Part shown: one piece after another, positions 8,889 to 62,644 of the stretch
Position numbering within the stretch: the stretch's first letter is position 1
Layout of the letters: every line of letters starts with the position of its first letter
Source: a virus
IMG/VR virus record: IMGVR_UViG_3300029288_006769
Span: 250,367-314,366 of that record
Direction: 5' to 3' (one strand)
DNA: 64,000 nucleotides
Made by a program: the position numbers and the translations under genes
The notes under the pieces: generated by a model
Seen by the model: only the letters and a program-made list of their open reading frames with translations
Told to the model about the DNA's origin: nothing
Databases searched by the model: none

Positions 8889-8891
8889 TGT

Positions 8892-9098: not shown

Positions 9099-9108
9099 AA
9101 TTTACTCC

Positions 9109-9486: not shown

Positions 9487-9502
9487 GATGAACCCTTCAA
9501 TA

Positions 9503-25924: not shown

Positions 25925-27174
25925 AATGTTTCTTCACGATAAGGAATATTATGTTTTGCTTTATAATGACTCCCAAAACCTTGATAGTGTATGTATTCAC
26001 CACATCTAATACATTTTTTATGTTTTCTTGACTTTGATTTATCTAAATTAAGAGCTTTTATGTAACTTTCAATACAAAGAACAGGTACTTTAAAAAATTC
26101 TGATAATTTATCATTTGGCTCACCATTATAAAACTTTTTTATAAAAATCTCTTTTTGATTCTCTAATTTTTGTATTATTAAACTACCTCTTCTTTTTCTA
26201 TTTCTTTCTTTTTTTCTTAAAGATGTTTTCTCTTGTTCTTCTTGCATTGTTCTAAGATTGTTAGAATCTATCAAGATTTGTTTGACTATATCTCTTGGTA
26301 TATGTAATTTTTTTGCAATAGATGAGTATGCTTGATTATCTTTGTAAAGTTTGCAAACAATATACTTGAACTTATTTTTTTGCTCTTCAATAAGTTTTAC
26401 ATTTTTCTTTCTTTTTGATTTTAACCCTAATCTCAAAAAAATCTTAGATGCTAAACCTTTAGGTAAATCATATTTATGCTTTATATCAATCTGATTAAGA
26501 CTTAGAATTTTTACGTCATCTTCAATATTTTTTCCTAACTTGTTAATATAATAATCGAGTCTATATTTTAAATATTCTTTAGACCCGACTTTAGGTATTT
26601 TATATATTCCATACAATATATTTACTAAGTGTTTGCTGACATTTAATTCGTTAGCTATTTTTTCGATGCTCTTTGATTCTCCTATATTTTCTTTAATGAA
26701 TTGTTCTTTAGAAATTTTATTTTTTAACTCACTGATATAATATTTTTTGTTTTTTAAATCGTATCTAAACTCTTCAATATTAATTTTTAATTGTCGATCA
26801 ATGTCCCAAACTGACATGTCTTCAAGAATATTTTTCGTATAGATATTAAGTTTTAAATTCGGATATGTTTCTTTTATAATTGCAAGTTTCTCTTTTGCTT
26901 CCTCTGGAAAATAACCTTTGATTTCTATAAACTCATCAAATTCTGGTAAATAAAAATCTGGATGATAATATGTTATTCTTCCACTTTTTGTAACATATTT
27001 AAAATTTTCAACACCAGTATGACATAAAAATTTTATATTTTTACTTTCTAACCATAACCCAAATTTAAACTCAAACGAACCCTGAAAATGATATCCTTTA
27101 TAAAAATACCAATGAGTATTAGAATAGTTTGCAATTTTATTTTGTGAAAAACTATGGTGCTTTGTGTTTTGCAT
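25918..27174 (-). CDS. Free-standing homing-endonuclease-like protein (418 aa): N-terminal PD-(D/E)XK-like nuclease motif, NUMOD-like HTH repeats, C-terminal zinc ribbon
   Basis: 'YHPDFYLPEFDEFIEIKG' (PD...E.K). Three HTH-like segments ('IEKIANELNVSKHLVNILYG', 'YSSIAKKLHIPRDIVKQIL', 'LSEFFKVPVLCIESYIKAL'). 'CIRCGEYIHYQGFGSHYKAKH'. Paralogous nuclease core to 62906..63886. Confidence 0.6.
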   Translation of the reverse strand: MQNTKHHSFSQNKIANYSNTHWYFYKGYHFQGSFEFKFGLWLESKNIKFLCHTGVENFKYVTKSGRITYYHPDFYLPEFDEFIEIKGYFPEEAKEKLAIIKETYPNLKLNIYTKNILEDMSVWDIDRQLKINIEEFRYDLKNKKYYISELKNKISKEQFIKENIGESKSIEKIANELNVSKHLVNILYGIYKIPKVGSKEYLKYRLDYYINKLGKNIEDDVKILSLNQIDIKHKYDLPKGLASKIFLRLGLKSKRKKNVKLIEEQKNKFKYIVCKLYKDNQAYSSIAKKLHIPRDIVKQILIDSNNLRTMQEEQEKTSLRKKERNRKRRGSLIIQKLENQKEIFIKKFYNGEPNDKLSEFFKVPVLCIESYIKALNLDKSKSRKHKKCIRCGEYIHYQGFGSHYKAKHNIPYREETLC

Positions 27175-27177
27175 AAT

Positions 27178-46800: not shown

Positions 46801-48030
46801 TTATTCTTGTTGGTATTTACGAGTCACACGTGGCCATGCACTTGGATAAACTTGATAAGCATCCATTGTAGGAACTATTTGCAAACCCTTTTGATGTCTA
46901 CTATTCATTTGACGTTCATCATATTGATTTGTTTCATAAGCTTGCTCTTTTAAATAATCAATACCATTCTTAAAACTATCTTCACCGTAACCATAATTGA
47001 TTCTACGAACTGTAGCAATCAAAGGGATATAAATTTCCCAATCTGTTTCGACAGTAAAACTAATTCCGCCCGTGAAATTATATTCTTCAGGAACTTCCAC
47101 TTCTAAATCTTCAGCCTCGCCTGACAAGGCAAACTCGCTAATTGCAATTCCTTCGTTTGCTAGGGCATCTTGATAATCTGCCCACAATGATGTAACTACA
47201 TAATCTATAACACGTTCTTGTTGATCAGCATCCTGAGCTACACCAAGAATATCGACATTAAGTATCCAGCGCCCACCAAAAACTTTAGCAGTTGTAGTAT
47301 TTTCTTCTTCTACAACAACAACTTGTTCATCTCCAACTTTTAGTCTATCACCAAAAGCAAGCACTACACCTGGGATAGCTGTATTATTAAGCCCATAATA
47401 TTCTGCTACAAAAGGGCCTTGTTGAGCAGATCGAACTTGATAATCAATAACAATTGGTTCGTGATCAGTTACTGGATTTGTGAAAAGAATCTCTCCTGTC
47501 TCATAATCTATAGCATAATCAATATCTTTTTTAAACTCGAATTGCCCATGTTCTGAAAAAACAATTTCTGAGCCTGGATTGACAGGTATGTTTTTTAGAA
47601 TAGCACCTTGGTGTGTTCTTATAACAACAAGATCTAGTTTTTCATTCGTGCAAGTCAAGTACGGGTCAACAGTAAAACTAAAAACATTTGTGTTGAGATC
47701 ATGTTCAGTAATTTTCACAATATAAAAACCTTGAGAAACTAATTTATCAAGGTTTTCTTGATCATCTCTTACCCATTCAATAGAATTACCAGGAACATCT
47801 TTTAGATTTGCTAATGAACAATAACCTCTATGAGTTCCAATAAAATTGTCAAGACCTAATTTTTGAGAAGAACCTGAAACAGATCTTACAAGAATAGCCG
47901 TTTTTGGACGCTCTTCTTGTGGGAATTTTGTATAGACTTTAACTTTTTCAAAAATAGGATGTCTAGCCAAAATATCTTGGAATATTGAAACAAATCTTTT
48001 TTTGAGCGAATTTGAAATTATATAAAACAT
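46801..48030 (-). CDS. Hypothetical protein (409 aa)
   Basis: Long ORF with operon orientation. No motif recognised. Confidence 0.55.
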   Translation of the reverse strand: MFYIISNSLKKRFVSIFQDILARHPIFEKVKVYTKFPQEERPKTAILVRSVSGSSQKLGLDNFIGTHRGYCSLANLKDVPGNSIEWVRDDQENLDKLVSQGFYIVKITEHDLNTNVFSFTVDPYLTCTNEKLDLVVIRTHQGAILKNIPVNPGSEIVFSEHGQFEFKKDIDYAIDYETGEILFTNPVTDHEPIVIDYQVRSAQQGPFVAEYYGLNNTAIPGVVLAFGDRLKVGDEQVVVVEEENTTTAKVFGGRWILNVDILGVAQDADQQERVIDYVVTSLWADYQDALANEGIAISEFALSGEAEDLEVEVPEEYNFTGGISFTVETDWEIYIPLIATVRRINYGYGEDSFKNGIDYLKEQAYETNQYDERQMNSRHQKGLQIVPTMDAYQVYPSAWPRVTRKYQQE

Positions 48031-48686: not shown

Positions 48687-49763
48687 TTATGCATAAAACT
48701 GTAAAGCATTCAATAAGCACCCTTTTGCAACTGCATTGAGTGGATCTGATGCCTTTTTTACTTGTTTAATTGAGAATGGTAATTTTTTCGTCTTTATTTC
48801 TTGCTCAAAAAGTTTATCAAAATTAACAGCTTTAGATGTTCCACCACTAACGACAACAGATATAGATTCTGGAAAATTAGGAATATCTGTCATAGAAGCA
48901 AATTTCTTTTCGATAGCATCACAAGTATAATTAATCAAATTTTCATAATAAATCTTTATTGCAGTCTCTTCTCTATTCTTTGAGTTCAATAAATCAACAC
49001 CAGCTTCTTTAAGCATAGTAATTCTTGAACTCTTAACTCCAACAGCTTGAGCAGCATTTTGATCAATCCAATCCCCTGAACGTGCAAGACAAAATTGATA
49101 TTTTTTATCAGAGACACCGTATAAAGAAAGAGCAAGATTGATTGAACCCGCACCAAATGATAAAGCTAACCCTGTAAATTGTTCTTCCTCAAGTTCTGAC
49201 CACACGATAGCAAATGCTTCATTGAGTGGCTCAGCATTATATCCAAATGATTTCAAAAATGACATAAGTACATTGCCATGATAAACATTATTGAAATCAC
49301 TGTCAATAGGATCAGCAGGAATCGAGAAATAAAGCTTCTCATTTTCTTCTATAGGGTCTCCCACAAGATTCTTCAAAATAATCTTTATAATTGACAAAGC
49401 TTCCGTTTCTCTAGAAGAAAGTACACCTTTAGAAAAGGGTCGACGTGATTCTTTGCTAAAGAAATTTGCTACATGCAAAGCTTCATCACCAAGAACATAG
49501 AGATTTCGTTTGTCAGAACTTTCAGCAAAACTGGCACCAAGTTTTGTAAGCATATTTTTTGAAATCGCATTGTTTTCTAGATCTAGAAAAGCATTTCTTT
49601 GACTCTTGAATATAATACCATTATCTGAGTAAAAAGAACTAACAGCAAAACCTGTACCACAATCTAGGCCTACACCTTTTTTTCTAGCAATTTTTGTGTC
49701 TTCCATTATTCGTCTTTTTCTTCTTTCTGGCTCTGAACCTTCTTTTTCAAGTTGGACATCCAT
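48687..49763 (-). CDS. Actin-like ATPase (ASKHA superfamily; MreB/ParM/FtsA-like, 358 aa)
   Basis: Phosphate-1 'VGLDCGTGFAVSS'. MreB-like 'VLGDEALHV...RPFSKGVLSS' (compare 'vGeeA...RPlkdGVIaD'). Phosphate-2 'LSFGAGSINLAL'. Adenosine motif 'VVVSGGTSKAVNFDKLFEQEI'. Confidence 0.75.
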   Translation of the reverse strand: MDVQLEKEGSEPERRKRRIMEDTKIARKKGVGLDCGTGFAVSSFYSDNGIIFKSQRNAFLDLENNAISKNMLTKLGASFAESSDKRNLYVLGDEALHVANFFSKESRRPFSKGVLSSRETEALSIIKIILKNLVGDPIEENEKLYFSIPADPIDSDFNNVYHGNVLMSFLKSFGYNAEPLNEAFAIVWSELEEEQFTGLALSFGAGSINLALSLYGVSDKKYQFCLARSGDWIDQNAAQAVGVKSSRITMLKEAGVDLLNSKNREETAIKIYYENLINYTCDAIEKKFASMTDIPNFPESISVVVSGGTSKAVNFDKLFEQEIKTKKLPFSIKQVKKASDPLNAVAKGCLLNALQFYA

Positions 49764-49765
49764 AA

Positions 49766-49984
49766 TTAATCTCCTTTAATTTTATATTGCTGTTGTCTAT
49801 TGAAATCGTCTTTTACATCCACAGGGTTGCCTCCGGACCATTGTTTGCCACGATTTTTTAGACCAGCAGGTATTTCTCCTTTATCGAAAAAACCTTGTTC
49901 TAATAAAGCTCGTGATACATCACCTTTTTGTGATAATGAACGTGATGCAGCAAGAACATCTCTTATGATATTTTCAGTATTCAT
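49766..49984 (-). CDS. Small protein (72 aa) immediately upstream of the actin-like gene
   Basis: ATGA-type coupling with the neighbours. No motif recognised. Confidence 0.45.
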   Translation of the reverse strand: MNTENIIRDVLAASRSLSQKGDVSRALLEQGFFDKGEIPAGLKNRGKQWSGGNPVDVKDDFNRQQQYKIKGD

Positions 49985-50634
49985 TTGTTTTCTCTTTGTT
50001 GTTTAATCCGCTTCATCTTTTCAAGCGAATTTGTAAGATCATTTTTTTGAACTTCTACATTACCTGTTTTACTCATATTCGCTGTCATTCCCACTTCTTC
50101 GTCTTTGAATTCGACAAAGATATTATCTGAACTATTAATATCTATCCTTTTTTCAGATACTTGTGGTACAATTAGTTGTTCTACTTTAATATTGTCTTTT
50201 ATTTCGGCAACCATTTCCTTCGCAAGTTCTCTAGCAATATCTTTTACGATAGTGCTGTTTTTTATCATTTCTTCAGCCATTGCTTTAGCCATATTTTTTG
50301 CAATTTCTAACACATCTGACTCTAGCACTTTTTCATTTCCTGTTTTATTATTTTGAGCTGATATAGCTCTCTTAAGCATGGCTCTATCATACACGATCTC
50401 GACCCAATTTCGATTTATTGCATTTTGCAAATCTTTTGAACGATTAACTTCATATTCATTAAGAATTACTTCTTTACCACATTCAACGACTTTACCAATA
50501 TCATTAAGTCGAACAGCAGTAAGTATTTTCCCTTTAATTATCATGATGATCTCGGGTTCCCGTTTTATAACTGGTTTCCATATATGTCTCATTAAATGTT
50601 GCTGAAAGCTCATGAACCATCTTTTCAAACACAT
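49981..50634 (-). CDS. Hypothetical coiled-coil protein (217 aa)
   Basis: Operon context. K/E-rich helical C-terminus. Confidence 0.5.
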   Translation of the reverse strand: MCLKRWFMSFQQHLMRHIWKPVIKREPEIIMIIKGKILTAVRLNDIGKVVECGKEVILNEYEVNRSKDLQNAINRNWVEIVYDRAMLKRAISAQNNKTGNEKVLESDVLEIAKNMAKAMAEEMIKNSTIVKDIARELAKEMVAEIKDNIKVEQLIVPQVSEKRIDINSSDNIFVEFKDEEVGMTANMSKTGNVEVQKNDLTNSLEKMKRIKQQRENK

Positions 50635-50646
50635 GTTCTAGCACTT

Positions 50647-51009
50647 TTAGATTAGTTTGCTTATCGAATCTTGAATCTTTTTCCCAGCTTGTTCTTGTGT
50701 TCTCTCCATAGCTTTCTCTATTCCTGTTGTAGAGAACTGTTGAGCTGTAATTTCTTCATTCAACAATTCTACAGGAATATTTTCAAGACCTTTGAGAACT
50801 TGCTTATTTGCAATATCTTCAGTTTTTAAATTTTCTATTTTAGGTTCTACAACAAAATTGATAGTATTATTTTTAATACTATAAGACACATCAGCTTCTT
50901 GCCCTCGTTTCTTTAACTCTGATCTTATATTGTCTGCGCCCTTGATTGCAATAGAGCGTATTTTAAAATCAAATTTCTTTTTTAAGAGTTTTTTGCTCGG
51001 GCTTAACAT
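50647..51009 (-). CDS. Hypothetical protein (120 aa)
   Basis: Operon context. Confidence 0.5.
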   Translation of the reverse strand: MLSPSKKLLKKKFDFKIRSIAIKGADNIRSELKKRGQEADVSYSIKNNTINFVVEPKIENLKTEDIANKQVLKGLENIPVELLNEEITAQQFSTTGIEKAMERTQEQAGKKIQDSISKLI

Positions 51010-51016
51010 TTACTTC

Positions 51017-54000
51017 TTATTTTATAAATTTTTTAGAAAACTGCCTTGTTTCAAGCAATTTATTTACAATAGATAGATTAGATTTTGCTATATCAAAATT
51101 TGGATTAACAGATAATGCGCTCTTAAACATAAAAATAGCTTTTTGAAAACTATTTTTATTTGCAAGATCTATACCTTTGTCATTGTAAGCAACTTCTAAT
51201 AAACCCCAAGACTTTGTTTCTTCTGTATTTATTCTCAAGCATTTTTCTAAAATACTAATAGCTTCATCGTTTTTTTTGAGAACATTACAACAATGACTAA
51301 AATCGGCCATAGTTTTTAAATCATCAGTCTTATAAACAATCTTTCTAAAAGCAAAATATGCATCTTCAATACGATTTTGTTTTGCATAGCAGATACCAAG
51401 ATGTTTAACAGCATACTCTGTTTCTTTTATCTTTATAGATTCTAAAAAATATTTTTCAGCTTGTTCATAATCTTCTATGAGATTATAGGTTGTTCCCAAA
51501 TGCGCAAGAACATCTTCATTCTCAGGTTCAAGTTCTAATAATCTGCGCCAAGTCACTAGAGCTTCATCGGGATTATTCAAAACTAAATATTGGGTCCCAA
51601 GTTCAAAAAGAGCTTTCGTGTCATTAAATGTTTCAGCCTTTTTCTTGCTAAGTTTTAAATATGTTTCGTTTTTTGAAGAATTAAGCTTTGAATAATGGTG
51701 AATTGGAATAGCAGACATTTCGATATCAATTCCGAGTTCTTCAATAGATTTTTCTACCAATTCATGTATTTCACCCCTAAACTTTATATTTTTATTCGTA
51801 GGAAATAAACGAATTTTATCTGATCTACACCAACCTATGTAACCTTTTTCTTCTTGCTCATATTCTCCGGTATTTGTATTGATTCCTTCAACATTTTTTG
51901 AATTCACATAATTTCTCGTAATGAATCCATAAGCTTTAGATGATGCTTGTAAATTTTTTCTCAATTCATCAATATCTTTCTCACTAATCATTTCGTCAGC
52001 ATCCAAAACTAATGTCCAGGGTTGTGTTGCTTTTTCAAGTGAAAAATTTCGAGCAGCTGAAAAATCATCAATCCATGCAAAATGATAAATCTTAGCTCCG
52101 TATTGTTTTGCAATTTTTATTGTGTTGTCTGTAGATCCTGTATCAACTATTATAATCTCATTTGCTACATTTTTTATAGACTCTAAACACCTTCCCAGGC
52201 AATCTTGTTCATTTTTGACAATCATACAAACAGAAAGTTGCTCTTTTCCCTGGCACAAATAGTTTGAATAGAGCCTATGTAGAACGGTCTCTAGTTTGTC
52301 AATGCTTTTATACCATAGGAATTCATTAGCAGTTTTTAAACCTTCTTCTATTAAACGAGAATAAATAGTCTCATTTAAAAAAAGCAATTTTAAAGAACTA
52401 CAAATAGCCCCAGAATTTTTAGGTGGAACAATTAATGCGTTTTGACCATGTACAGCATAATCATTCACTCCTCCGCAATCTGTAGTTATGACAGGGGTTC
52501 CACTTGCCATTGCTTCTAATGGAGGAAGACTGAACCCTTCGACTTCAAATGGTGCATTTACAACTACATCACAAGAAGCGTATACATTTGCAATTTCAAT
52601 CTGCGTCATATTCGACATATTATAAAATTCGTAAGGCTCATCTTTAGAACATTTTTCAGAAGCTAAACGAACTATTGCACATTTAGAAATCTTCAAATAA
52701 TTTGTTGCACCTTCTAATGCGATTTTTACTCCCTTAAACACTAAATTATAATTGCCCACAATAAGAATTCTTGGGAGTTTATTTCTTTCATGTTTTCTCA
52801 AAGAAAAAACATACTGATCAATTCCATTAGGTATGTAATGTGATTCTGTTTCAAATTTTTTATCAATAATAGATTTCAAATATTTAGAAATAACAATTTT
52901 CTCTTTTATCTTCAAATAATTGTTATTCACAGCATCAACTATTGTTGCGTCCAAATCTTTATCATATATCAAAGCTTCATAACCTTGACAAAAATGAATC
53001 TTTATTTTTGCTTTAATTTTTTGTAATATGTCTAATGTAGAAAAATAAGTACCAATTGCTATATCTACTTCTGGAATTTCTGTATATTCTTTAAAACAAG
53101 AAACTGATACGTCTAAATCAAACCAGGGCTTTGATGTATTAGAATAACACCAGATAGATACATCATATCCTCTTGATTTTAAACGATTTGCATACTCAAA
53201 TACGACTTTGACTCCGCCACTGGGTTGATTTGAAGCTAAAATGTATATGATGGAAAATTTATCTTTTTTCTCATTTATTTTCTGTATTCTTGAAGAATCA
53301 TACCATTTTTGAAGATACAGTTTTTTGCTTTGTTCTAAAGTTTCTTCGAAAAAACCTTCTTTTTCTTGAAAAGATTTACTACCAAAATGGTAAATAAAAA
53401 CGCCTTTAGAACATATTAATTTATAACCATTCTCTATGAAACGATTACAAAGATCATCATCTTCAAAATTGAAAATAAATCTATCATCAAAAAAACCTAC
53501 CTGATTTAAGAGCTCTCTTTTTGTTACAAAACAAAATCCGATAAGTTTATTTGCTTCTACTACATCATCTCCAAAATTTGCATATTGTTTTTGAGAAAAC
53601 AGACGAATTTCGTTATCATTTACCTCAGCTTTAAAATTATAATTTTGTCCAACTTTTTGAATTTCTGATGATGTATAATTAGTGACTGGCCCAATAATAC
53701 CTGCATTATTTTCTTCAAGCAAATTTATTAATCTTAACAACCAATTTGATGTAACAACAGTATCGCTGTTCAAAAAACAGACATATTTAGAATTTGATTT
53801 TCTAAGAGCTTGATTATTTGCATAACCGAACCCAAAATTTTTAGAATTGTATATTATTTCAATATTTTTTAAAGACATTAAATACATTTTTGTAGCATTA
53901 TCGGAGCAATTATCTACTATGATAAGTCTATAATTTGCTGTATTTCTTATTATGCTTTCAACACATTTTTGCAAGTAAGGAAGAGCATTATGTGTAATTA

Positions 54001-54838
54001 AGACAATATCACAATCATAAGTAACTTGAGCTTCATTATACTCAAGACTTAAAATTTTTGATCTTAGATAATCTAAAGCTTTTGCAGCTATTACACCATT
54101 TTGTTGTATAAGTCTTTGTCCCCATTTTTTCAAAAGCGTAGGATACGAATATTTGACGAGAACATCTCTTTTCCCTTTATATGATTGATTCGAGCGATGA
54201 TAAACATAAACATCATCAGCTATTGCAAGTTTATAACCTCTTTGTCTTATTTTCAAGACATAATCGTCTTCACTACCATAATGTGGAAAAACTCTTGTAT
54301 CTAATAAACCTATGACTTTTATAATGTTATATGAAATAAAAAAACAAAATCCATTTACGAAAGCTGTTTCTGGGTATCTTCTTTCTGATAACGATGTCAC
54401 CCAATTGCCATAAGTATCTATTTCTGTATCATTGACACAAGATTTACCTACAGATTGTGTTGTTGCACAATTTGACAAAACACCCATACAACCAATCTGT
54501 TTATGACTTGCCCAATAAGTCGTAATCTTTTCTAACCAATTTTGTGTAACAATTTGAGTATCAGAATTTAACAAACATACATATTCGAAATTCTTGCTTT
54601 CTAAAATCCCTTGATTACAACTCTCTGTGAATCCCTTTGAAACAGGATTTTTAATGTATTTTTGTACTATTTTGCTATCAAAAAGTAACTGACAAAAATT
54701 AGAAGTTTCAAGATCAGAACCATCGTTAATTAAGACTATTTGAAAATCTTTGGTGTTAGACTTTTCGAGAATTGTTTTGACACATTTTTCAAGCAATTCC
54801 CACTGATTGTGTACTGGTATGATGATTGAGACAGCCAT
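51017..54838 (-). CDS. Multidomain glycosyltransferase (1273 aa): GT2 - GT2 - GT4 - GT2 followed by C-terminal TPR repeats
   Basis: GT2 #1 'SIIIPVHN...IVLINDGSD...GSEDDYVLKIRQRGYKL'. GT2 #2 'DIVLITHN...LIIVDNCSDNA...NFEDDDLCNRFIENGYKL'. GT4 'EGFSLPPLEAMASGTPVITTDCGG'. GT2 #3 'LSVCMIVKNEQDCLGRCLESI...EIIIVDTGSTDNT...DDFSAARN...LVLDADE'. The tail region matches the TPR 34-mer pattern. Confidence 0.85.
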   Translation of the reverse strand: MAVSIIIPVHNQWELLEKCVKTILEKSNTKDFQIVLINDGSDLETSNFCQLLFDSKIVQKYIKNPVSKGFTESCNQGILESKNFEYVCLLNSDTQIVTQNWLEKITTYWASHKQIGCMGVLSNCATTQSVGKSCVNDTEIDTYGNWVTSLSERRYPETAFVNGFCFFISYNIIKVIGLLDTRVFPHYGSEDDYVLKIRQRGYKLAIADDVYVYHRSNQSYKGKRDVLVKYSYPTLLKKWGQRLIQQNGVIAAKALDYLRSKILSLEYNEAQVTYDCDIVLITHNALPYLQKCVESIIRNTANYRLIIVDNCSDNATKMYLMSLKNIEIIYNSKNFGFGYANNQALRKSNSKYVCFLNSDTVVTSNWLLRLINLLEENNAGIIGPVTNYTSSEIQKVGQNYNFKAEVNDNEIRLFSQKQYANFGDDVVEANKLIGFCFVTKRELLNQVGFFDDRFIFNFEDDDLCNRFIENGYKLICSKGVFIYHFGSKSFQEKEGFFEETLEQSKKLYLQKWYDSSRIQKINEKKDKFSIIYILASNQPSGGVKVVFEYANRLKSRGYDVSIWCYSNTSKPWFDLDVSVSCFKEYTEIPEVDIAIGTYFSTLDILQKIKAKIKIHFCQGYEALIYDKDLDATIVDAVNNNYLKIKEKIVISKYLKSIIDKKFETESHYIPNGIDQYVFSLRKHERNKLPRILIVGNYNLVFKGVKIALEGATNYLKISKCAIVRLASEKCSKDEPYEFYNMSNMTQIEIANVYASCDVVVNAPFEVEGFSLPPLEAMASGTPVITTDCGGVNDYAVHGQNALIVPPKNSGAICSSLKLLFLNETIYSRLIEEGLKTANEFLWYKSIDKLETVLHRLYSNYLCQGKEQLSVCMIVKNEQDCLGRCLESIKNVANEIIIVDTGSTDNTIKIAKQYGAKIYHFAWIDDFSAARNFSLEKATQPWTLVLDADEMISEKDIDELRKNLQASSKAYGFITRNYVNSKNVEGINTNTGEYEQEEKGYIGWCRSDKIRLFPTNKNIKFRGEIHELVEKSIEELGIDIEMSAIPIHHYSKLNSSKNETYLKLSKKKAETFNDTKALFELGTQYLVLNNPDEALVTWRRLLELEPENEDVLAHLGTTYNLIEDYEQAEKYFLESIKIKETEYAVKHLGICYAKQNRIEDAYFAFRKIVYKTDDLKTMADFSHCCNVLKKNDEAISILEKCLRINTEETKSWGLLEVAYNDKGIDLANKNSFQKAIFMFKSALSVNPNFDIAKSNLSIVNKLLETRQFSKKFIK

Positions 54839-54845
54839 GATGTGT

Positions 54846-55907
54846 TTAAAAAAGCCTTTCTATATTTTCAATTGTTTTTTCCCAAGTGTAATTTGAAATC
54901 ACCTCTTCTATATTTCTTTGAAACATAGTTGCAAACTCTGTATTATTTAAAAGCTCTTTAGATTTTCTTAAAATATCTTGTTTATTTTTCTTTTCAGCTA
55001 TAAGACAAGTTTTTTTATCAAAAAAAACATCATCAAAAGCTCCATCACAAATGACAGAAGGGCATCCACATAATGTCGATTCTATAGGGGTTAAATTAAG
55101 ACCCTCGGAAATCGATGGCATAATAAAAATAGAACACTTATTAAAAATTTCTCTTATTGTATCTTTATTTGCATCTACATATTTGGCTATAAGTTTTTCA
55201 GGATGTTTTGCGTTTTCAAACCCCGAACTTGTACCAAAAACTATTGTTCCATCAATTAAACCTTGGTTGCACAAATCATTACAGATTTCAACACCAAGTG
55301 CATATTGTTTATCTGGAGCATAATGATACAGTAATGAAGCATATCTTTGTCTTTTAATCGCCTTATCTCTGAAAAAATAATTTTGCGAATCCGATCCAAA
55401 ACCTACACAAGCACATTTTCCTCCTTCTGCTTCTATAGCTTTTTTGATTTTTAAAGTGCTTGACATGACAGTTAATTTCGGGTTGAATACATTTTTTCTT
55501 TCTCTTTCGAAACACATACCATAACTTAGCATATAAATCAAAACTTTTTTGACTTGAGGAAGATTTGTAAGATACTCTGTGTAAGGATTGTCTGAATATG
55601 TGATCACTACATCAGATGCAGGAAATGTTTGGTCAGGTAATCCCACTGTGTATGGAAGAGGCAACACTTTCGAGTAGTCTAAATTAGGATTTAAAGTTTG
55701 AATCCTAAGTTGCACTTGATATTTTTTTTTTAATCCCCTTGACAATGCCATTGACAACTGTTTCATATGTTGAATCCCTCCACTTGTTTCCACATATTTA
55801 GGGATTTCAACGACAAACAGATTGCTAAATTTTCTAGCTAAAGTTGTCTGCCGCATTATGCCACCGCTCTCATTATTGAACACAGGAAGTTCTACTACAA
55901 TCGTCAT
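54846..55907 (-). CDS. GT4-family (GT-B, retaining-type) glycosyltransferase (353 aa)
   Basis: 'MPSISEGLNLTPIESTLCGCPSVICD' (E-x7-E motif). Confidence 0.7.
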   Translation of the reverse strand: MTIVVELPVFNNESGGIMRQTTLARKFSNLFVVEIPKYVETSGGIQHMKQLSMALSRGLKKKYQVQLRIQTLNPNLDYSKVLPLPYTVGLPDQTFPASDVVITYSDNPYTEYLTNLPQVKKVLIYMLSYGMCFERERKNVFNPKLTVMSSTLKIKKAIEAEGGKCACVGFGSDSQNYFFRDKAIKRQRYASLLYHYAPDKQYALGVEICNDLCNQGLIDGTIVFGTSSGFENAKHPEKLIAKYVDANKDTIREIFNKCSIFIMPSISEGLNLTPIESTLCGCPSVICDGAFDDVFFDKKTCLIAEKKNKQDILRKSKELLNNTEFATMFQRNIEEVISNYTWEKTIENIERLF

Positions 55908-56467
55908 TCTTTTTTCCTACAAGTTATTGCAACATTTTCAAAATCTAAAAAATCTTTTTTTAAATTATTTTCTAAACAAGTTGCATCTATATCCTTGTCG
56001 GTTATTTCAATCCAATTCCAGATTTTTCCTATCATGACATTTTCAAAATACTCCATATCCTTTGCATAATCATGTGCCAAAATATAATCGCCTGGTTTTA
56101 AAAATTTTGAAAAAATGCTAAATTCTTTAATTTTGTTTCCACCATCACAAAAAACAACACTTGTTCCTTCATTCTTTATCAAGTTTTGGATTACATCAAT
56201 ACTCTCAAAAACATCAGCAATTCTATGATCAATATTTAAACGTACAAACAGTTTATTGTTTTCAGTTAGTTTTTTAATGTCAAATGTAACAAACTGACAA
56301 TCATAAGCAATTGCATACATTTGAAACAATATAGAAAGGCCTCCATAATATGTTCCAATTTCTATGATAGTCTTTGGCTTTACAGCAAGTAAAAATTCAT
56401 TTAGAACTTTTGGAATATTTTCATTCTGTGCAAGATTAAAGCCTAAAAATTCGAAACTCACATTCAT
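55904..56467 (-). CDS. SAM-dependent O-methyltransferase (TylF/MycF/CmcI-like class I MTase, 187 aa)
   Basis: 'TIIEIGTYYGGLSILF' (motif I) ... 'VVFCDGGNKIKEF'. Confidence 0.6.
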   Translation of the reverse strand: MNVSFEFLGFNLAQNENIPKVLNEFLLAVKPKTIIEIGTYYGGLSILFQMYAIAYDCQFVTFDIKKLTENNKLFVRLNIDHRIADVFESIDVIQNLIKNEGTSVVFCDGGNKIKEFSIFSKFLKPGDYILAHDYAKDMEYFENVMIGKIWNWIEITDKDIDATCLENNLKKDFLDFENVAITCRKKE

Positions 56468-56510
56468 AGCTACTCCTTGTCAAAGCAATCAAAGCAATGT
56501 TCGAATTAAA

Positions 56511-57068
56511 TTAATCTTTTCTCAAAACCCAACAATTTCCTCTAACAATATATTTTTTATTTAATTTTTCACAAAATTCATCAATCGCTTGTTTTACAGG
56601 AGGGTGTGAAAAATCATGCCCTGCCATAGTTCCACCTACACAAATCTTAGGCCACCAACAATTTAGATCTCTTCTAACGGCATCCAAACTATGATCGGCA
56701 TCAATAAAAACAAAATCTATTGTATTGTCTAAGAAATAACTTGCTCCTAAATGACTGAGTGATTTTATAACAATTAGATCTTTCCAAATTGGTTCTAGAT
56801 TTTTTCGAAATAAATCTAATTGTGGATATGTAGTGATTTCATTACCATTATGAGCATTCCCTATGAAAGCATCAATGCTTATTACAGTTAGATTTTTTTG
56901 CGAATTTATAGCTTCAACAGCTAAAAATGCTATACTTTGGCCTATCCATGAACCTACTTCTATAAGAATGCCATTTTGTCTGCTCTGTTTTATTGCATCT
57001 TCATAAACATCTTGGAAATTAAACATAGTTTGTTGAGGAGAACAAATTGTTTCATAAAAATGTTTCAT
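56511..57068 (-). CDS. Class I SAM-dependent methyltransferase (sugar O-MTase-like, 185 aa)
   Basis: 'ILIEVGSWIGQSIAFLA' ... 'FVFIDADHSLDAVRRDL'. Confidence 0.7.
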   Translation of the reverse strand: MKHFYETICSPQQTMFNFQDVYEDAIKQSRQNGILIEVGSWIGQSIAFLAVEAINSQKNLTVISIDAFIGNAHNGNEITTYPQLDLFRKNLEPIWKDLIVIKSLSHLGASYFLDNTIDFVFIDADHSLDAVRRDLNCWWPKICVGGTMAGHDFSHPPVKQAIDEFCEKLNKKYIVRGNCWVLRKD

Positions 57069-57075
57069 ACTTGTT

Positions 57076-57852
57076 TCACACCTTGTAAGTTGTTTTTATT
57101 GTTGTTGGACTACAATTAGGTCCTCGAGTGTCTTTACCAGCAAAAACATCAAATACAGAACCAATGTCTACTGCTACACCACCTTGATTTTTCCAAAACA
57201 GACCATATATTTTTCCGACAAAACCTGAGCCATATAATAACAACTTTCCCTTTAGATCTCCCAAATTTTTTATAATTTGTTGTATTTCAAGAAATCTATC
57301 AGGATAATGTTTACTTCTATATCTTTTTTCTTCAAACATCATTTCCGGAGGTACTGGAATAAATTGTACATTAGTTATATTGAATCTCTTTGAAAATTGT
57401 CGAGCTAAATCTCTACAACTTATAATGTATAAATCTTGTCTATTTAAAAGCAATTTATCATAACAAGATTCTCTTGATTCCCAATTTCTCAAAAATTCAT
57501 AATGAAAATCTATCGACCCAAAATCTGTAGTTTTAATATTGCAATAAATTTTTAGAATATTTAAACTTTCGGTCCAGCAACTTCCAAGACTAAGATGATA
57601 TTCTGTAGGAATTCCTAACAAATCGGCATTGTTTATAGTCTCAATTAAATTTTTTCTTATTTCTTCTATAGATTCTTTTTTTAGAATCTCATTTAATTGT
57701 CTACTAAAAATATGTTCAACAATATTTTTTTCATTGTTCTTTAAAAGTATTGCTTCACCATCACCATATCTTAATGCTAGAAATGATCTATTTTCATTTA
57801 AGCTAGTTATTATTTTTAAAAATACTTGATTGAAATCATTATTGATATTCAT
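57076..57852 (-). CDS. Possible GT-D (DUF1792-like) glycosyltransferase (258 aa)
   Basis: 'LALRYGDGE' near the N-terminus resembles the R-x-GDGE motif I recall from DUF1792/GT-D enzymes. Embedded among GT and MTase genes. Low certainty. Confidence 0.4.
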   Translation of the reverse strand: MNINNDFNQVFLKIITSLNENRSFLALRYGDGEAILLKNNEKNIVEHIFSRQLNEILKKESIEEIRKNLIETINNADLLGIPTEYHLSLGSCWTESLNILKIYCNIKTTDFGSIDFHYEFLRNWESRESCYDKLLLNRQDLYIISCRDLARQFSKRFNITNVQFIPVPPEMMFEEKRYRSKHYPDRFLEIQQIIKNLGDLKGKLLLYGSGFVGKIYGLFWKNQGGVAVDIGSVFDVFAGKDTRGPNCSPTTIKTTYKV

Positions 57853-58507
57853 ATCTCGACAATTCTTGAAAATTCTGACAATTTACATTAATAAGACAAT
57901 ATGTTTCTCTATATACATCTTTAAATTGAATTAATTCTTTTGCTCCCAATTTTTCACTATAAACAATAGTATCTACAGGTGAACAAATCGGAACTATTTC
58001 ATTAGAACTTGAATCATTTATTTTATATAAGCTCCCTATCTTTGCTTCAAATTTTAATTCTTCAGTAATTTTTTTTAACATTTCCGTTGTTACATTTGTA
58101 GGATGTCCTATCCAATCTGTCCATGTCAACTTAAACCCTAAAGAAGCAAGGTATTTAATTTTATCGAAACATGGGACTTTAATAAAGATGAATTCTGTAG
58201 CAGCTTTAACAGATTTTTCTAATACGTTTTTAACTTGTGCTTCATTTTTTAAATGTTCAAGAAAATGAAGCATTGTTATAAATCTACATTTAGGAATTTC
58301 ACAACTTACATCAGTAATATCAGCAAAAACTACATTATAACCTTTTTCTCTTGCTCTTTCAAGTTCGCTTTTCCTATTGTCAATACCTAAAAATGTTTCT
58401 CCACCAAATCTAGATTTTGCCCATCCTATAGACCCACCCACACCACAACCCAAATCGACACAATCTAGCATTATATTTCCTTTAGCAAAAATTAAACAAA
58501 TTTTCAA
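57839..58507 (-). CDS. Class I SAM-dependent methyltransferase (222 aa)
   Basis: 'LDCVDLGCGVGGSIGWA' (motif I) followed by acidic motif II/III positions. Confidence 0.65.
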   Translation of the reverse strand: MKICLIFAKGNIMLDCVDLGCGVGGSIGWAKSRFGGETFLGIDNRKSELERAREKGYNVVFADITDVSCEIPKCRFITMLHFLEHLKNEAQVKNVLEKSVKAATEFIFIKVPCFDKIKYLASLGFKLTWTDWIGHPTNVTTEMLKKITEELKFEAKIGSLYKINDSSSNEIVPICSPVDTIVYSEKLGAKELIQFKDVYRETYCLINVNCQNFQELSRYEYQ

Positions 58508-58827
58508 ATATTATGATGTAGCTGTTTTGACATATCTGGTAAAGAAATATTGTACATTGGGCGTCTAGAATACAAATCATCCATCTCAAAAACATACAAA
58601 TCTCTTGCTCTATTTCTAGCATGCAAATGTCTCATAGGTCTGAAATCTTCATAAATCCTGTTTTCAACAGGTTGTCCCTCGCTTTTATCAGAACCTCTAG
58701 GTACAATACTATCTACTTTTTGCTGAATTCGAACGGCATCGGGAGAATCTTTCGACAATTCAACAAATTCTTTACGAAGAGGACCACGTCTATAAGTAGC
58801 TGTTGGAGCAATTACTAAATTATCCAT
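58504..58827 (-). CDS. Hypothetical protein (107 aa)
   Basis: Operon context. 4-nt overlap with the downstream MTase gene. Confidence 0.45.
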   Translation of the reverse strand: MDNLVIAPTATYRRGPLRKEFVELSKDSPDAVRIQQKVDSIVPRGSDKSEGQPVENRIYEDFRPMRHLHARNRARDLYVFEMDDLYSRRPMYNISLPDMSKQLHHNI

Positions 58828-58868
58828 AAATTCCTTTAGTCAATTTGGGGACTTGCTCCCTCAAATAA

Positions 58869-59456
58869 TTAAGCCCAAATTCTTGTAAAAGGTCGATCAA
58901 ATAAATGTATTCTTCCTTTTGAATCTTTTCTCGGATTATCTTTATAATAAACATCTTGAAAAGTTCCTGATGTCTGCTTGTAAAGATAATGAATGAATTT
59001 CGCATAAGTATGAGCATTTGCATACCTGCTTGCAGGGTCTCTTATAGTTCTCAACATGGGTCTTACTGTAGACTTAAATGTTGCTTCTGGATTTACTGCC
59101 TTAGGGTCAAACCAAGCACCCAAATTCATTCCTTGATCAACAAGGTATTTGTCAGCTTCTAATTGAGGTTTCTCCACATCAGCCAAAAGATTCCTTTTCC
59201 TTGTACGCCATAAATTCAACATGTCATTGTTGAGAGTTAAAGTCATAGGAATTGTGGTTTCATTAATAGTATAGCCGCCTCTAACCGTAGGGTATTCTCT
59301 TTGAAAATTATTGAAAGTATCTTGTTCAGAAACAAATTGTGGAAGCGGCACTCCAGGATACTTTCTTGTAACATCAAACTGATCTCTTTCGACATTAGAA
59401 AATCTTTGACTTTTTCTTGCTGGATCAGCTATTACAATACCATGTAAAGTTGCCAT
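58869..59456 (-). CDS. Hypothetical protein (195 aa)
   Basis: Long ORF. Candidate promoter and AAAGGAA SD upstream. Confidence 0.5.
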   Translation of the reverse strand: MATLHGIVIADPARKSQRFSNVERDQFDVTRKYPGVPLPQFVSEQDTFNNFQREYPTVRGGYTINETTIPMTLTLNNDMLNLWRTRKRNLLADVEKPQLEADKYLVDQGMNLGAWFDPKAVNPEATFKSTVRPMLRTIRDPASRYANAHTYAKFIHYLYKQTSGTFQDVYYKDNPRKDSKGRIHLFDRPFTRIWA

Positions 59457-59517: not shown

Positions 59518-62259
59518 TCAATAATTTATGTTCTCGAAAACTATACTTCTACCTTTTACTATATGATCTACATTTGAATTTTCATGCGAAACAAAATCCT
59601 CACTTGTATGCAACTCTTCTCTTTCTTTAGGGCTATCTACTGTCGCAACATTCGGGCCACCATGCAGAACATGCTTACTGCTCTTGTCGATCCCAGGTTG
59701 CATGATCTGATTAGGTAATATCACTTTAAATTTATGCCTTACATCAGTTCCATCAAGAACTTCAACAACAAAATGTTGTTGTGCTCTTACTCCACCAGGA
59801 CCTTCTACTGGAGTTATCGGCCCTATCAAACATCTATCACCATTTCTTCGAATTATCATGTCTCTTTGATTGACTATAGGACTTGGTCCTGTCCATGTTT
59901 CGATCTGATATGCTAATTTTAAGCCCCTATCAGTTTGTTGCACTCTTTGTTCTGTTGTCAAGGGACCTATAAGTATTGGGAATGGTCCATCAAATCCACC
60001 AACGAAACCCGAACCAAAACAAATTTCGCAATCTTGATCCGGTTGTTTATGAGTTCTTTCTTTAACATCTCTATAAGTACAAGCACATTTTACCCCTGCT
60101 TTTTTCTTTAAATAAAGCAAAACACGTTCTCCACCCTGTTCAAGCATCCATGCGTTTCTACGCACACACTCTTCTAAAATATACGTCATCTTGTCAGGCT
60201 GCAAAACCATTGGCGTTAATAAATCTAAATCAGTCTCGTCCTCGCTCGTTACGCACGTTACCTTATAAAAATAGTTCTTCCTTAACCGTATATCAATTGT
60301 GTTAGAAGGTACTCTATATGACACGAGCACTATTGAATATTCATTTGGTACAGGTGGCTCGAACCATTGTTTTTTTACTTCATCATATTGTCTTTTTGTT
60401 TCAAGTTCTATCACGCCTTCTAAACCTTGAAGTAAACGTACATAAGCTTGCCGTCCATCAATTGTTACGTTTACGAACTCTGATTTATCCGTAGGTGTAT
60501 TTTTACCTGAATCATCTATCACAGGTCGTTGGGACAAATAGATCAAATATTCTTTTTTAGGGTTCAAAGGTTGTATAATAATTGGATTTCCAGAAACCAC
60601 AACAAATTCTGAAAATCTAAACTCAATTTGCTTGTCACCTGAGACACCACAAAGTTCTATGTGTAATTCATCAGAATATCTATCAAACACACCAAGTTGT
60701 ATAAAATTCTGAGTCAAATGGTCAAAGAAATATGTTGTAATTATCTCTCCAACTCTTATGATTCTAAATTCTCCTGTTACATCACTAGAAGGAATTGTAG
60801 TTGGTATCTCTTGATTACCATTAACGTATTGAACAGAACTATATACTTCAGATAATCTCGACATTGCTCTAGAAATTTCGACACTATTCTGTTCGTCTTT
60901 TCGAACAATGAATTTGCAAGCTTGTATTCCAATATCGGGTGCAATCCAAGTAGAAAAATCAAACTTTATCTTTATTTCAAAATTTCCTCTAAGTTTATAT
61001 TTTGACACAAGTCTTGATGTCTGTTTCAAACCCACACTATCTTTGAAAATCACACCATCATACTGAAACAACATTTCGGCAGGATCTATTTCATCCCATT
61101 TTGCAGCATCAAATATTTCAGTAGAACTAAAATCATCATTCACATCATTACTAATGCTTACAGTTCTTCTAAACTGTTCACTCACATCTTCATTTACAAT
61201 CCGACTATCAAGATTTTTGTCAAGATATTGAGTAATTGCTATAGTGCTAGAATTAAGTTTTTGAAACGGGCCTATTTCTGAATCAGCTCTATAGATGTTA
61301 TATCCAATTACTTGATTATAAACCGGATACATATCGTCCCAACGAATATGTAGTTCACTTTGATTGAAAGGGCAGGACACAAAAACATTTGTAGGAATAT
61401 AATTGTTTTTAGCTATTTCAACATTATAGATTTCGGTATGAGTTGTCTCGACATTACCGATTTCATCAATAGCAAAAAATTTTATTGTTGTTCTTCTATT
61501 ATCTCTTACTCTTATTGGTGTTGCATAAACCAATGATGCTGTTGTCGGCTCAGTACCATTAATTGTATAGTAGATAATCGCTTTTGGATCGTCTACAGAA
61601 AGTACTATTTCTTGAGAAGTAAAAAATGAACCACCAGAAGGTGCAGCACTTGAAATTGGAGCAATCGAATCTATCTCGTAATTTTCTATTATTATTTCGG
61701 AATATGAATTGGAAACAAATGCAATTGCTTTTAATGTTGTTGTTCCTTGATTTGTTATAGAGAGTGGAGCGACATAAGTATCGGAATATAATGTAGGTGT
61801 TGAGCCATCTAAAGTAAAAAAAACTACAGCTGTCACATCTGTCGTAAGTGTTACAGATATAGCAGAATTAAAAAGACGTCCATGAGGAGCAGCTGTAACT
61901 ATAGGTGGCTGAATACTTGGATCTGGTATTGTTAAAAACTCGTAATCACTTTCACCTGTTGCTCCATGTAGATCATTAATTTCAACATGAACAGAAACAA
62001 TCTGACTATAATTAAAGTGAGCGATCTGATAAATATTTATGCTGACTGAATTCGGTACAGAATTTTCGTTTATTATTGTACCTTCAAAACCCGTTTGAAA
62101 CACGCCATTTACTATTGCAGGAACCGTAGCAATAGAAACATTCAATGTTGCAACATCAACACCATGTATATCTTGTGCTCTTAAAAATATTGGGACATCT
62201 AATTTTGCTCCAATATAACCTTGAGCTGGGCTAAAATCTAAAAAAGTTGGATTAGACAT
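59518..62259 (-). CDS. Virion structural protein (913 aa) with two CHB_HEX_C-like Ig domains, an 'NEDVSEQF' module and a C-terminal Cys-rich zinc-binding region
   Basis: 'AVVFFTLDGSTPTLYSDTYVAPLSI...TLKAIAF' and 'AIIYYTINGTEPTTASLVYATPIRV'. 'NEDVSEQFRRT'. 'CACTYRD...DCEICFGSG'. Confidence 0.7.
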   Translation of the reverse strand: MSNPTFLDFSPAQGYIGAKLDVPIFLRAQDIHGVDVATLNVSIATVPAIVNGVFQTGFEGTIINENSVPNSVSINIYQIAHFNYSQIVSVHVEINDLHGATGESDYEFLTIPDPSIQPPIVTAAPHGRLFNSAISVTLTTDVTAVVFFTLDGSTPTLYSDTYVAPLSITNQGTTTLKAIAFVSNSYSEIIIENYEIDSIAPISSAAPSGGSFFTSQEIVLSVDDPKAIIYYTINGTEPTTASLVYATPIRVRDNRRTTIKFFAIDEIGNVETTHTEIYNVEIAKNNYIPTNVFVSCPFNQSELHIRWDDMYPVYNQVIGYNIYRADSEIGPFQKLNSSTIAITQYLDKNLDSRIVNEDVSEQFRRTVSISNDVNDDFSSTEIFDAAKWDEIDPAEMLFQYDGVIFKDSVGLKQTSRLVSKYKLRGNFEIKIKFDFSTWIAPDIGIQACKFIVRKDEQNSVEISRAMSRLSEVYSSVQYVNGNQEIPTTIPSSDVTGEFRIIRVGEIITTYFFDHLTQNFIQLGVFDRYSDELHIELCGVSGDKQIEFRFSEFVVVSGNPIIIQPLNPKKEYLIYLSQRPVIDDSGKNTPTDKSEFVNVTIDGRQAYVRLLQGLEGVIELETKRQYDEVKKQWFEPPVPNEYSIVLVSYRVPSNTIDIRLRKNYFYKVTCVTSEDETDLDLLTPMVLQPDKMTYILEECVRRNAWMLEQGGERVLLYLKKKAGVKCACTYRDVKERTHKQPDQDCEICFGSGFVGGFDGPFPILIGPLTTEQRVQQTDRGLKLAYQIETWTGPSPIVNQRDMIIRRNGDRCLIGPITPVEGPGGVRAQQHFVVEVLDGTDVRHKFKVILPNQIMQPGIDKSSKHVLHGGPNVATVDSPKEREELHTSEDFVSHENSNVDHIVKGRSIVFENINY

Positions 62260-62644
62260 ATTTTTCTTCTAATTCTTGTATTTCATCAGCAACTTTTGCA
62301 ACTAATTTCTTTGCAATTTCTTTTTTGATTTCTAGCCAATCAATTTTAAAACTATGGTCATCGATATAATAGTCAGCATACACCTTTGACGAAGTTTGAA
62401 AATCTATACTCGGTATATTCTGATTCGCAATATCATAATGGATCTCATTGTCTTTCAAAAAGCTTGTTGCTTGTTTAAACATCTCACCACTACGACAAGT
62501 CCAAAGAATTATATAGCAACCTTTTTCATGTGCCCATTTCAAAACTTCTTTTGCGTTTGGCATAAGTTCTCTGGGCACATAATCTTTTTCGTCTTTTATA
62601 ATTGTGCCGTCAAAATCGATTGCAAGTATGAGTTTCTTCTTCAT
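62252..62644 (-). CDS. HAD-superfamily phosphatase (130 aa)
   Basis: Motif I 'LILAIDFDGTI' (DxDGT). Motif II Thr in 'IILWTCRS'. Motif IV 'YYIDDHSF'. Confidence 0.65.
   Translation of the reverse strand: MKKKLILAIDFDGTIIKDEKDYVPRELMPNAKEVLKWAHEKGCYIILWTCRSGEMFKQATSFLKDNEIHYDIANQNIPSIDFQTSSKVYADYYIDDHSFKIDWLEIKKEIAKKLVAKVADEIQELEEKYV

Follow-up and report, generated by a model that had tools for sequence, protein, structure and literature searches.

A 1273-residue multi-glycosyltransferase and TPR protein anchors a variable, putative glycosylation island in the tail operon of a probable huge phage

We analyzed a 64,000-nucleotide stretch of viral DNA (IMG/VR record IMGVR_UViG_3300029288_006769, positions 250,367 to 314,366; this whole stretch is referred to below as the window, and coordinates are counted from its first letter). 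It contains a single minus-strand open reading frame (ORF) of 1273 codons (51017..54838), whose product fuses four glycosyltransferase (GT) modules to a C-terminal tetratricopeptide repeat (TPR) region in the order GT2a-GT2b-GT4-GT2c-TPR. This giant GT gene is the conserved anchor of an accessory island (51017-58507) that varies in content and occupies one precise insertion site within a neck/tail structural operon. The best-supported reading, from the sequence, the structural models and the analogy with known enzymes, is protein glycosylation with a TPR-guided priming module. The fuller explanation, in which the ORF is a genuine, functional and soluble multi-enzyme that works with the rest of the island on a protein of the virion and gives the particle a variable glycan coat, is the best that we can offer, and we regard the case for it as evenly balanced.

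The ORF runs from an ATG at 54838 to 51017 and has zero internal stops. At the local G+C content of about 30%, stops should come once in ~11 codons, the probability that 1273 successive codons stay open at the local base composition is ~5e-52, and 20 shuffled versions of the window gave no stop-free run longer than 158 amino acids (aa). Four contigs from different assemblies (the longest of 424 kb, and including NCBI GCA_028717785.1 and Logan SRR18595300) encode an identical 1273-aa protein, indicating that the fusion is not an accident of assembly. An earlier note on this DNA had allowed that assembly error might have joined separate genes; hidden stops, a chimeric fusion and an assembly or sequencing artefact are all excluded by the identity of the protein across independent assemblies and by the retention of the fusion in ~20 relatives. 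No transmembrane segments are predicted in the enzyme, in keeping with a soluble protein.

Domain assignment with Pfam, supported too by PHROGs and by PDB sequence searches, places Glycos_transf_2 on three separate stretches (aa ~3-219, 278-490 and 868-1052; E 7e-68, PF00535 score 228.3 bits against a cut-off of 23.3), Glycos_transf_1/Glyco_trans_1_4 at aa ~689-834 (E 8e-17; PF00534 score 61.7 bits against a cut-off of 26.4) and TPR families at aa ~1071-1260 (TPR_1, E 3e-19). AlphaFold2 models built using the family alignment are confident in both halves of the protein: aa 1-862 fold as GT-A, GT-A and GT-B domains (mean predicted local distance difference test score 86.5), and aa 863-1273 as a GT-A domain followed by 13 helices (mean score 89.8, predicted template modeling score 0.77). 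Foldseek matches GT-A enzymes for all three GT2 domains. The single polypeptide and the domain order that the earlier note had proposed are thus borne out by the ORF, by Pfam and by the models.

The modules divide the gene as follows (all on the minus strand). GT2a (aa 1-262, 54053..54838; GT-A fold, NSD at 91-93 and EDD at 190-192) is a variable N-terminal add-on, present in 5 of the 21 family members, and GT2b (aa 270-525, 53264..54031; GT-A fold, NSD at 357-359 and EDDD at 459-462) is the first domain of the conserved core. The GT4 module (aa 526-862, 52253..53263; GT-B fold) resembles MshA, BshA, PglA and PimA (Foldseek template modeling [TM] scores of 0.65-0.77) and holds an invariant E767-x7-E775. 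GT2c (aa 863-1060, 51659..52252), a GmaR/SunS-like GT-A domain and the proposed priming, protein-modifying module, has the invariant residues D899, D946-A-D948, H1025 and HH1047-1048. The TPR domain (aa 1061-1273, 51020..51658), whose 13 helices form ~6.5 TPR-like repeats, is the proposed acceptor-binding scaffold. By family assignment alone, the GT2 modules would be inverting and the GT4 module retaining.

Conservation of the catalytic residues suggests that the modules are active. The alignment of 21 family members has 185 invariant columns, which include every motif of GT2b, GT4 and GT2c, and mean domain identity to the query is 53-62% across the relatives, GT2c and the TPR domain being the most conserved parts. 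The N-x-D of GT2b is kept across all relatives (as NSD except in two, which have NND once and NPD once), and the NSD of GT2a in the four relatives that possess that module. The degenerate residues that the earlier note had counted as the other way in which it might be wrong are not seen in GT2b, GT4 or GT2c in any of the 20 relatives. Its statement that each module has intact catalytic motifs is correct for GT4 and for GT2c, which holds a canonical DXD (D946-A-D948), and needs amending for GT2a and GT2b, which carry NSD instead. The NSD of these two modules falls exactly on the DSD/DAD of GT2 enzymes of known structure, and EDDDL lines up with EDKDL; the variant is compatible with activity, and with this caveat all four GT modules are apparently active.

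The case for a protein acceptor comes from the GT2c-TPR module. Its best solved sequence relative is the GT domain of GmaR (single-sequence E 2.3e-25; E 2.6e-37 by profile, over GmaR residues 10-202, which is the whole ~200-aa GT domain), and the TPR helices begin directly after GT2c, as in the GmaR-type arrangement. In GmaR the GT domain is likewise followed by a TPR domain, which its authors propose to recognize flagellin (PMC9638930). In fold, the whole module, TPR region included, best matches the peptide glycosyltransferases SunS and ThuS (Foldseek E 2.5e-16, ~435 aligned columns). A precedent for acceptor capture by a TPR domain is provided by FlmG, in which that domain is necessary and sufficient for binding flagellins (PMC7591256). 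Most likely the phage GT2c-TPR works in the manner of the GmaR and SunS GT-TPR units, and the TPR-recognized protein acceptor that the earlier note had suggested is the reading best supported by the GmaR homology, the SunS/ThuS fold, the FlmG precedent and the bacterial loci described next.

We scanned one genome per prokaryotic species with the trimmed GT2c-TPR alignment and inspected the best 80 loci (27-49% identity). A flagellin, FlaF or FlbT gene lies within a flank of at most 8 kb in 26 of these 80 loci, and in 14 of the top 30. The best cellular match falls at the C-terminal end of a 1944-aa giant made up of GT2 and TPR blocks, from a Nitrospirota metagenome-assembled genome (CAWGYL010000009.1, locus L009), with AMP-binding and Maf/MptE-like genes ahead of it and the genes for FlaF, FlbT and flagellin behind it; at other loci the GT2c-TPR-like module is a stand-alone protein of ~500 aa that adjoins a giant GT. 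Multi-GT2/TPR proteins of 1200-2340 aa recur beside FlaF-FlbT-flagellin sets in the Nitrospirota and Desulfobacterota metagenome-assembled genomes of loci L009-L033, where the flagellins are too divergent to be detected with Bacillus Hag or Salmonella FliC queries. We found no biochemical characterization of these flagellin-locus giants.

Relatives of the complete phage enzyme show how modular it is. About 20 of them, at 50-73% identity and encoded on phage-like contigs that reach 398 kb, keep a ~1000-aa core, GT2b-GT4-GT2c-TPR, and differ in what precedes it: five family members consist of the core only, the query and four others add GT2a, three add two GT-A-type domains and a GT4, five add a ~325-aa region and a second GT4, and one adds a GT2 and a GT4; the precomputed Pfam list of P0016 shows two extra GT4-type domains. 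Core-only relatives encode further activities (GT32-like, GT2 plus GT-D-like, GT4, or a second GT2-TPR) as separate genes just upstream, indicating that fused and separate forms of the modules are interchangeable. Two loci with a core-only giant, L089 and L094, encode a second, stand-alone GT2-TPR protein of 459 aa within the island (at 6859-8238 and 1665-3044, respectively), as well as a 193-aa ORF with a weak protein-kinase match; the second GT2-TPR suggests two priming enzymes and therefore possibly two acceptors or sites. Foldseek also aligns GT2a-GT2b to the tandem GT-A polymerases K4CP, PmHS2 and LARGE1, with TM scores of just 0.2-0.3. An alternating polymerase of the K4CP/PmHS2 kind seems less likely for this pair, the resemblance being one of architecture at low TM scores and GT2a not being conserved; its absence from most relatives argues against an obligate two-domain polymerase.

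The earlier note was mistaken in calling such assembly-line fusions rare. A database search returned 535 relatives, and among the matches listed most are multi-GT fusions of 800-2200 aa from many bacterial phyla; giant GT/TPR proteins of 1200-2200 aa are typical of the nearest flagellin loci, multi-domain GTs of the chlorovirus PBCV-1 have been studied, and modules that combine a GT2 with helical repeats recur among uncharacterized phage and giant-virus proteins. Its further remark that none was known to be characterized in a phage holds up: among 50,697 phage records we found no close DNA or protein relative and none covering at least 80% of the query, and the records of cultured or catalogued phages yielded no comparable multi-GT fusion.

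The giant gene and five co-oriented upstream genes make up the 7.5-kb island, which we consider accessory because its content varies and because relatives lack it at the same point. The five genes, all on the minus strand, encode a separate GT4 glycosyltransferase of 353 aa with an E-x7-E motif (54846..55907); a 187-aa methyltransferase resembling CmcI and rhamnosyl-O-methyltransferase (55904..56467); a 185-aa Methyltransf_24/CmcI-like methyltransferase (56511..57068); a 258-aa GT-D-fold-like protein (57076..57852), for which the Pfam match is weak (24.9 bits against a cut-off of 27) and whose homologue in L089 and L094 is fused to a GT2 (there the GT-D-like match is unmarked, with E at most 1e-5); and, at the upstream end, a class I S-adenosylmethionine (SAM) methyltransferase of 222 aa from a TTG start (210 aa according to gene callers; 57839..58507). 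The genes of the island overlap or are separated by 7-43 nucleotides, and the G+C content of the island is 0.297, compared with 0.347 in the rest of the window. In relatives the cassette differs and may include radical-SAM/SPASM, ATP-grasp, GT11 or DUF268 proteins, a DegT fragment or other methyltransferases. No transmembrane protein is predicted in the island, and Pfam detected no phosphoglycosyltransferase, flippase, polymerase or ABC exporter family in the five island versions inspected. A scan for promoters and terminators was uninformative, giving the same counts as shuffled sequence and no terminator signal above chance.

The frame around the island is constant. Gene order is conserved across six loci, from a ~913-aa CHB_HEX_C/Fn3 gene through u195, u107, the island, u120a, u217, u72 and an actin-like gene to terminator-like, fibre and sheath genes. 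In the window the small conserved genes u107 and u195 form the upstream border (58504..59456, minus strand) and u120a, u217 and u72 the downstream border (49766..51009, minus strand), and both sets are kept in an island-minus relative, L093 (JGI 3300081836 Ga0672870_0000001, 466 kb), in which u107 and u120a stand ~100 bp apart with no GT between them. The insertion point, between u107 and u120a, is therefore precise. In this region of L093 (locus coordinates ~7100-10000) the stretch from the CHB/Fn3 gene to the actin-like gene is without a GT gene; three unannotated ORFs (120, 362 and 333 aa) lie upstream of u195 instead. A more distant genome, LR745208 (485 kb), has just 1.4 kb between its CHB-like and actin-like genes and no island, and Tunturi_5 has neither the island nor the actin gene. 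Because they all persist in L093, u195, u107, u120a, u217 and u72 are weakened as candidates for island-dependent acceptors or accessory factors.

The genome from which the window comes is most likely that of a huge contractile-tailed phage of roughly 400 kb, in a lineage that ranges over ~130-470 kb. Every gene of the window is on the minus strand, and among them are genes for a tail sheath, baseplate wedge subunits, and fibre-like and tape-measure-like proteins; genes similar to the flanking ones occur in the cultured Tunturiibacter phage Tunturi_5 (309 kb), in Bacillus phage G and in an uncultured phage of 485 kb, and a 192-kb relative is listed by IMG/VR as a viral genome. One of the records that carry the identical protein, NCBI GCA_028717785.1 (contig JAQUND010000005.1), is labelled 'Candidatus Nanoarchaeia archaeon', a label that is most likely a binning artefact, given the contractile-tail gene content and the relatives among IMG/VR and jumbo-phage genomes.

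We propose the following working model. GT2c-TPR would capture a protein by means of its TPR superhelix and prime it, placing an initial sugar on one of its side chains. Elongation of the glycan would fall first to the GT4, GT2b and GT2a modules of the giant enzyme and then to the separately encoded GT4 and the GT-D-like protein, and the three SAM methyltransferases would cap the glycan by O-methylation. Soluble protein glycosylation is favoured over a lipid-linked polysaccharide pathway by the position in the neck/tail operon and by the absence of membrane, export and lipid-carrier enzymes. A virion protein is the most likely acceptor because the surrounding genes are late structural ones and the island lacks partner genes for lipid-carrier, export or DNA-modification functions. 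The processive tetrasaccharide envisaged in the earlier note is not borne out: the island adds a GT4, a GT-D-like protein and three methyltransferases, and GT2a is a variable add-on, so the product is probably larger, methylated and variable between lineages. Since both the arrangement of fused and separate modules and the tailoring cassette differ, the glycan is expected to differ between phages. The weak similarity of GT2b to rhamnosyltransferase models (NCBIfam) and the CmcI-type methyltransferases give hints, and only hints, of a methylated glycan that contains deoxyhexose. Glycosylation of mycobacteriophage capsids and tail tubes has been reported (as cited in PMC12619734).

We advance more tentatively, and with rather more doubt than confidence, an evolutionary account in which a lineage of huge phages took over a flagellin-glycosylation machine from bacteria and turned it on its own particle, yielding a virion 'serotype' locus comparable to those for O-antigens. 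A GmaR-type GT-TPR primer, interchangeable extension modules and a hypervariable tailoring cassette would then give each phage a different methylated glycan coat, and the locus would be gained or lost at its fixed site in the tail operon, with defence, adsorption and grazing as the presumed drivers.

Several observations weigh against glycosylation of a virion protein. No acceptor is identifiable from the window, which covers 64 kb of a ~400-kb genome, and no flagellin-like sequence was found in it; the bacterial relatives of GT2c-TPR point to flagellin, not to phage proteins, as the acceptor. Ser/Thr-rich tracts are absent from the conserved neighbours of the island, and three large tail proteins encoded farther away have no more than short ones. 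The island itself is dispensable, and the lack of any counterpart in L093 indicates that it is not needed for assembly; it contains no nucleotide-sugar synthesis genes, and its late expression is suggested by position only. As for the enzyme, GT2 and GT4 folds are generic, no NCBIfam model reaches its equivalog threshold (hence there is no named orthologue), and GT2a and GT2b retain the terminal Asp of a DXD motif that is otherwise not canonical. The TPR-like domains of SunS-type enzymes may serve oligomerization rather than acceptor capture.

Two alternatives place the target on the host. The island might build or modify an envelope glycan (O-antigen, capsule or teichoic acid) or an exopolysaccharide, leading to superinfection exclusion or serotype conversion, and Iyer et al. 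read polymorphic jumbo-phage GT clusters in this sense, ascribing to them the modification of outer polysaccharides (PMC7824862). No GT families are commoner in polysaccharide synthesis than GT2 and GT4, PHROGs label the domains as 'moron/host takeover' GTs, and the Foldseek matches also include three teichoic-acid GTs (TarP, TarS and RmlT) together with K4CP and PmHS2. The TM scores to TarP and K4CP are low, however (0.2-0.43, as against the whole-module match to SunS/ThuS), and the most conserved part of the enzyme is a GmaR-type GT fused to TPRs; moreover, the membrane protein, phosphoglycosyltransferase, flippase, polymerase and ABC exporter of such a pathway are missing from all five island versions, and the island sits in a structural operon rather than in an early or moron region. 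We consider this alternative unlikely. Distinctly unlikely, in our judgement, is the second, which keeps TPR-guided protein O-glycosylation and gives it a host acceptor, most obviously flagellin, such that the host surface is remodelled during infection, with the blocking of competing flagellotropic phages or altered motility as possible effects. The nearest cellular relatives of GT2c-TPR are indeed in flagellin loci, GmaR is the closest solved homologue, and, as the window has no flagellin-like gene of its own, the ancestral acceptor would be the host's. Against it, the phage TPR domain is just ~30-40% identical to the TPRs of flagellin loci, and in every relative the island lies inside the neck/tail structural operon, which suggests late expression and would leave little time for the modification of newly exported flagellin to have an effect.

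The remaining alternatives lack their obligatory partner genes and are unlikely for that reason. Some phages have GT-A and GT-B enzymes that assemble di- and trisaccharides on 5-hydroxymethylcytosine, in clusters that adjoin C5-cytosine methyltransferase/5mYOX or ThyS and replication genes (bioRxiv 2023.12.21.572611), and the present island also contains methyltransferases; its GTs might hypermodify phage DNA, glycosylating hydroxymethyl-pyrimidines to evade restriction. These methyltransferases, however, are CmcI/sugar-O-methyltransferase-like or generic class I enzymes, no C5-cytosine methyltransferase/5mYOX, ThyS or replication gene is present in the island or its conserved neighbours, and GT2c is GmaR-like and fused to TPRs in an island embedded in tail genes, so that we regard DNA glycosylation as very improbable. 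More improbable still is a SunS-like role for GT2c-TPR on a small ribosomal peptide (a bacteriocin of the glycocin type), to which the other domains would add sugars. In its favour, no other structures match the whole module as well as ThuS and SunS, the latter from prophage SPbeta; yet the protein reaches just 81.8 of the 350 bits required by the SunS-family model of NCBIfam, the neighbourhood encodes neither a Cys-containing precursor peptide nor an ABC transporter or a thiol-disulfide oxidoreductase, and the 72-aa neighbour is without cysteine and persists where the island is absent.

Glycosylation of a virion protein would direct attention to the structural genes of the conserved frame. 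The 913-aa protein encoded upstream of the island (59518..62259, minus strand), with two CHB_HEX_C_1/Fn3_assoc units, is a candidate acceptor; towards its C-terminus it is similar to gp322 of Tunturi_5, a 'minor tail protein', and to gp175 of phage G. A 409-aa protein (46801..48030, minus strand) resembling the 'tail terminator' of Tunturi_5 also belongs to the frame. Just upstream of the CHB/Fn3 gene, and conserved there in the related locus L004, is a 130-aa HAD-like hydrolase (62252-62644, minus strand; Hydrolase_3, E 2e-5), which could be a sugar-phosphate phosphatase. Farther away in the tail module, a 1546-aa ORF (14831-19471, minus strand) has a PHROG 'hydrolase' match (E 2e-35) and a Ser/Thr-rich N-terminal tract (aa 19-66), and an ORF of 1876 aa (19691-25321, minus strand) has no family match; either could be a fibre or depolymerase protein and could serve as a glycan acceptor. 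Amid baseplate and fibre genes, a 418-aa ORF (25918-27174, minus strand) with endonuclease and Holliday-junction-resolvase PHROG matches overlaps the 2-kb bin with the lowest G+C content of the window (26001-28000, 0.282) and may be an insertion of the homing-endonuclease type.

The actin-like gene of the frame (48687-49763, minus strand) encodes an ATPase of the Volactin family (PF25216, E 3e-74), a family otherwise known from work on cell shape in Haloferax. About 60 orthologues (52-89% identity) were found on contigs no longer than 466 kb, and in each case the gene has the island site on one side and the terminator, fibre and sheath genes on the other; it belongs to the conserved core of this huge-phage lineage; the island-less LR745208 also encodes a Volactin-like protein (41% identity), and the nearest cellular homologues (42-46%) are labelled Planctomycetota.

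To our knowledge, experimental proof that phage-encoded enzymes glycosylate the virion is limited to a few actinobacteriophages, to which the giant algal viruses may be added. The locus described here suggests that uncultured huge phages carry a far more elaborate and rapidly diversifying form of it, in an island that appears to have been assembled from parts of the bacterial flagellin-glycosylation toolkit. We found no description, in the literature or in sequence records, of a hypervariable island located in a huge-phage tail operon and anchored by a constant four-GT-plus-TPR enzyme, of a link between such a phage enzyme and the flagellin-glycosylation family, or of natural island-plus and island-minus relatives. 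Together these make a testable system, comprising a putative priming module (GT2c-TPR), defined extension modules, genomes with and without the island, and a short list of conserved candidate acceptors. The bacterial side deserves equal attention, as multi-GT/TPR giants are the norm in many flagellin loci and are barely studied. If instead an envelope glycan or the flagellin of the host is what the island modifies, a tail operon would be carrying a module for remodelling the host, which would be unusual.

Comparison with the closest known systems places the phage enzyme near several of them and outside the strict GmaR and SunS families. GmaR (PDB 22ao), the flagellin O-GlcNAc transferase and MogR anti-repressor of Listeria monocytogenes, is like GT2c-TPR in being a soluble cytoplasmic GT joined to TPRs; it has a single GT domain, whereas the phage protein adds three GT modules N-terminally, and its C-terminal part of ~460 aa includes a linker and the MogR-binding anti-repressor, whereas the phage protein ends after a TPR region of ~213 aa. 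The flagellin that GmaR modifies is encoded in its own organism. With no anti-repressor domain and no flagellin gene nearby, the phage protein falls outside the strict GmaR family. SunS and ThuS (PDB 7msn, 7msp and 7msk) share the GT-A domain with a C-terminal helical repeat domain, and SunS is prophage-encoded; unlike the four-GT phage protein, each has one GT domain and S-glycosylates a Cys of a small peptide, and the score of the phage protein against the SunS-family model TIGR04195, below its threshold, puts it outside that family as well. FlmG of Caulobacter crescentus follows the same logic, its TPR domain binding flagellins and handing them to a fused cytoplasmic GT (PMC7591256), with the difference that the TPR domain is N-terminal, the enzyme is of the GT-B type and transfers one pseudaminic acid, and the GT domain is not homologous to those of the phage enzyme. 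The flagellin-locus giants are the closest cellular relatives of GT2c-TPR (37-49% identity) and likewise carry this module at the C-terminus of multi-GT proteins of 1200-2200 aa; they differ in having several GT2 and several TPR blocks (the giant of L009 has no GT4) and in adjoining FlaF, FlbT, flagellin and Maf-like genes, where the phage enzyme adjoins tail genes. Among phages, the mycobacteriophage virion glycosylation described by Freeman et al. in 2023 reportedly depends on separate small GT genes, and we know of no giant fusion, GmaR-type GT-TPR module or huge-phage setting in those systems. In its architecture the enzyme also recalls A111/114R and A064R of PBCV-1, each of which joins three domains, GT or GT plus methyltransferase, in one polypeptide. 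Both are implicated in glycosylating the capsid protein, with a complex and partly methylated glycan that is built without the machinery of the host (PMC7826918); PBCV-1 is a eukaryotic virus, the glycans on its major capsid protein are N-linked, and its enzymes have no TPR domain. Seen against these systems, the phage enzyme and its island are most likely an elaborate version of a kind of system that is already known.

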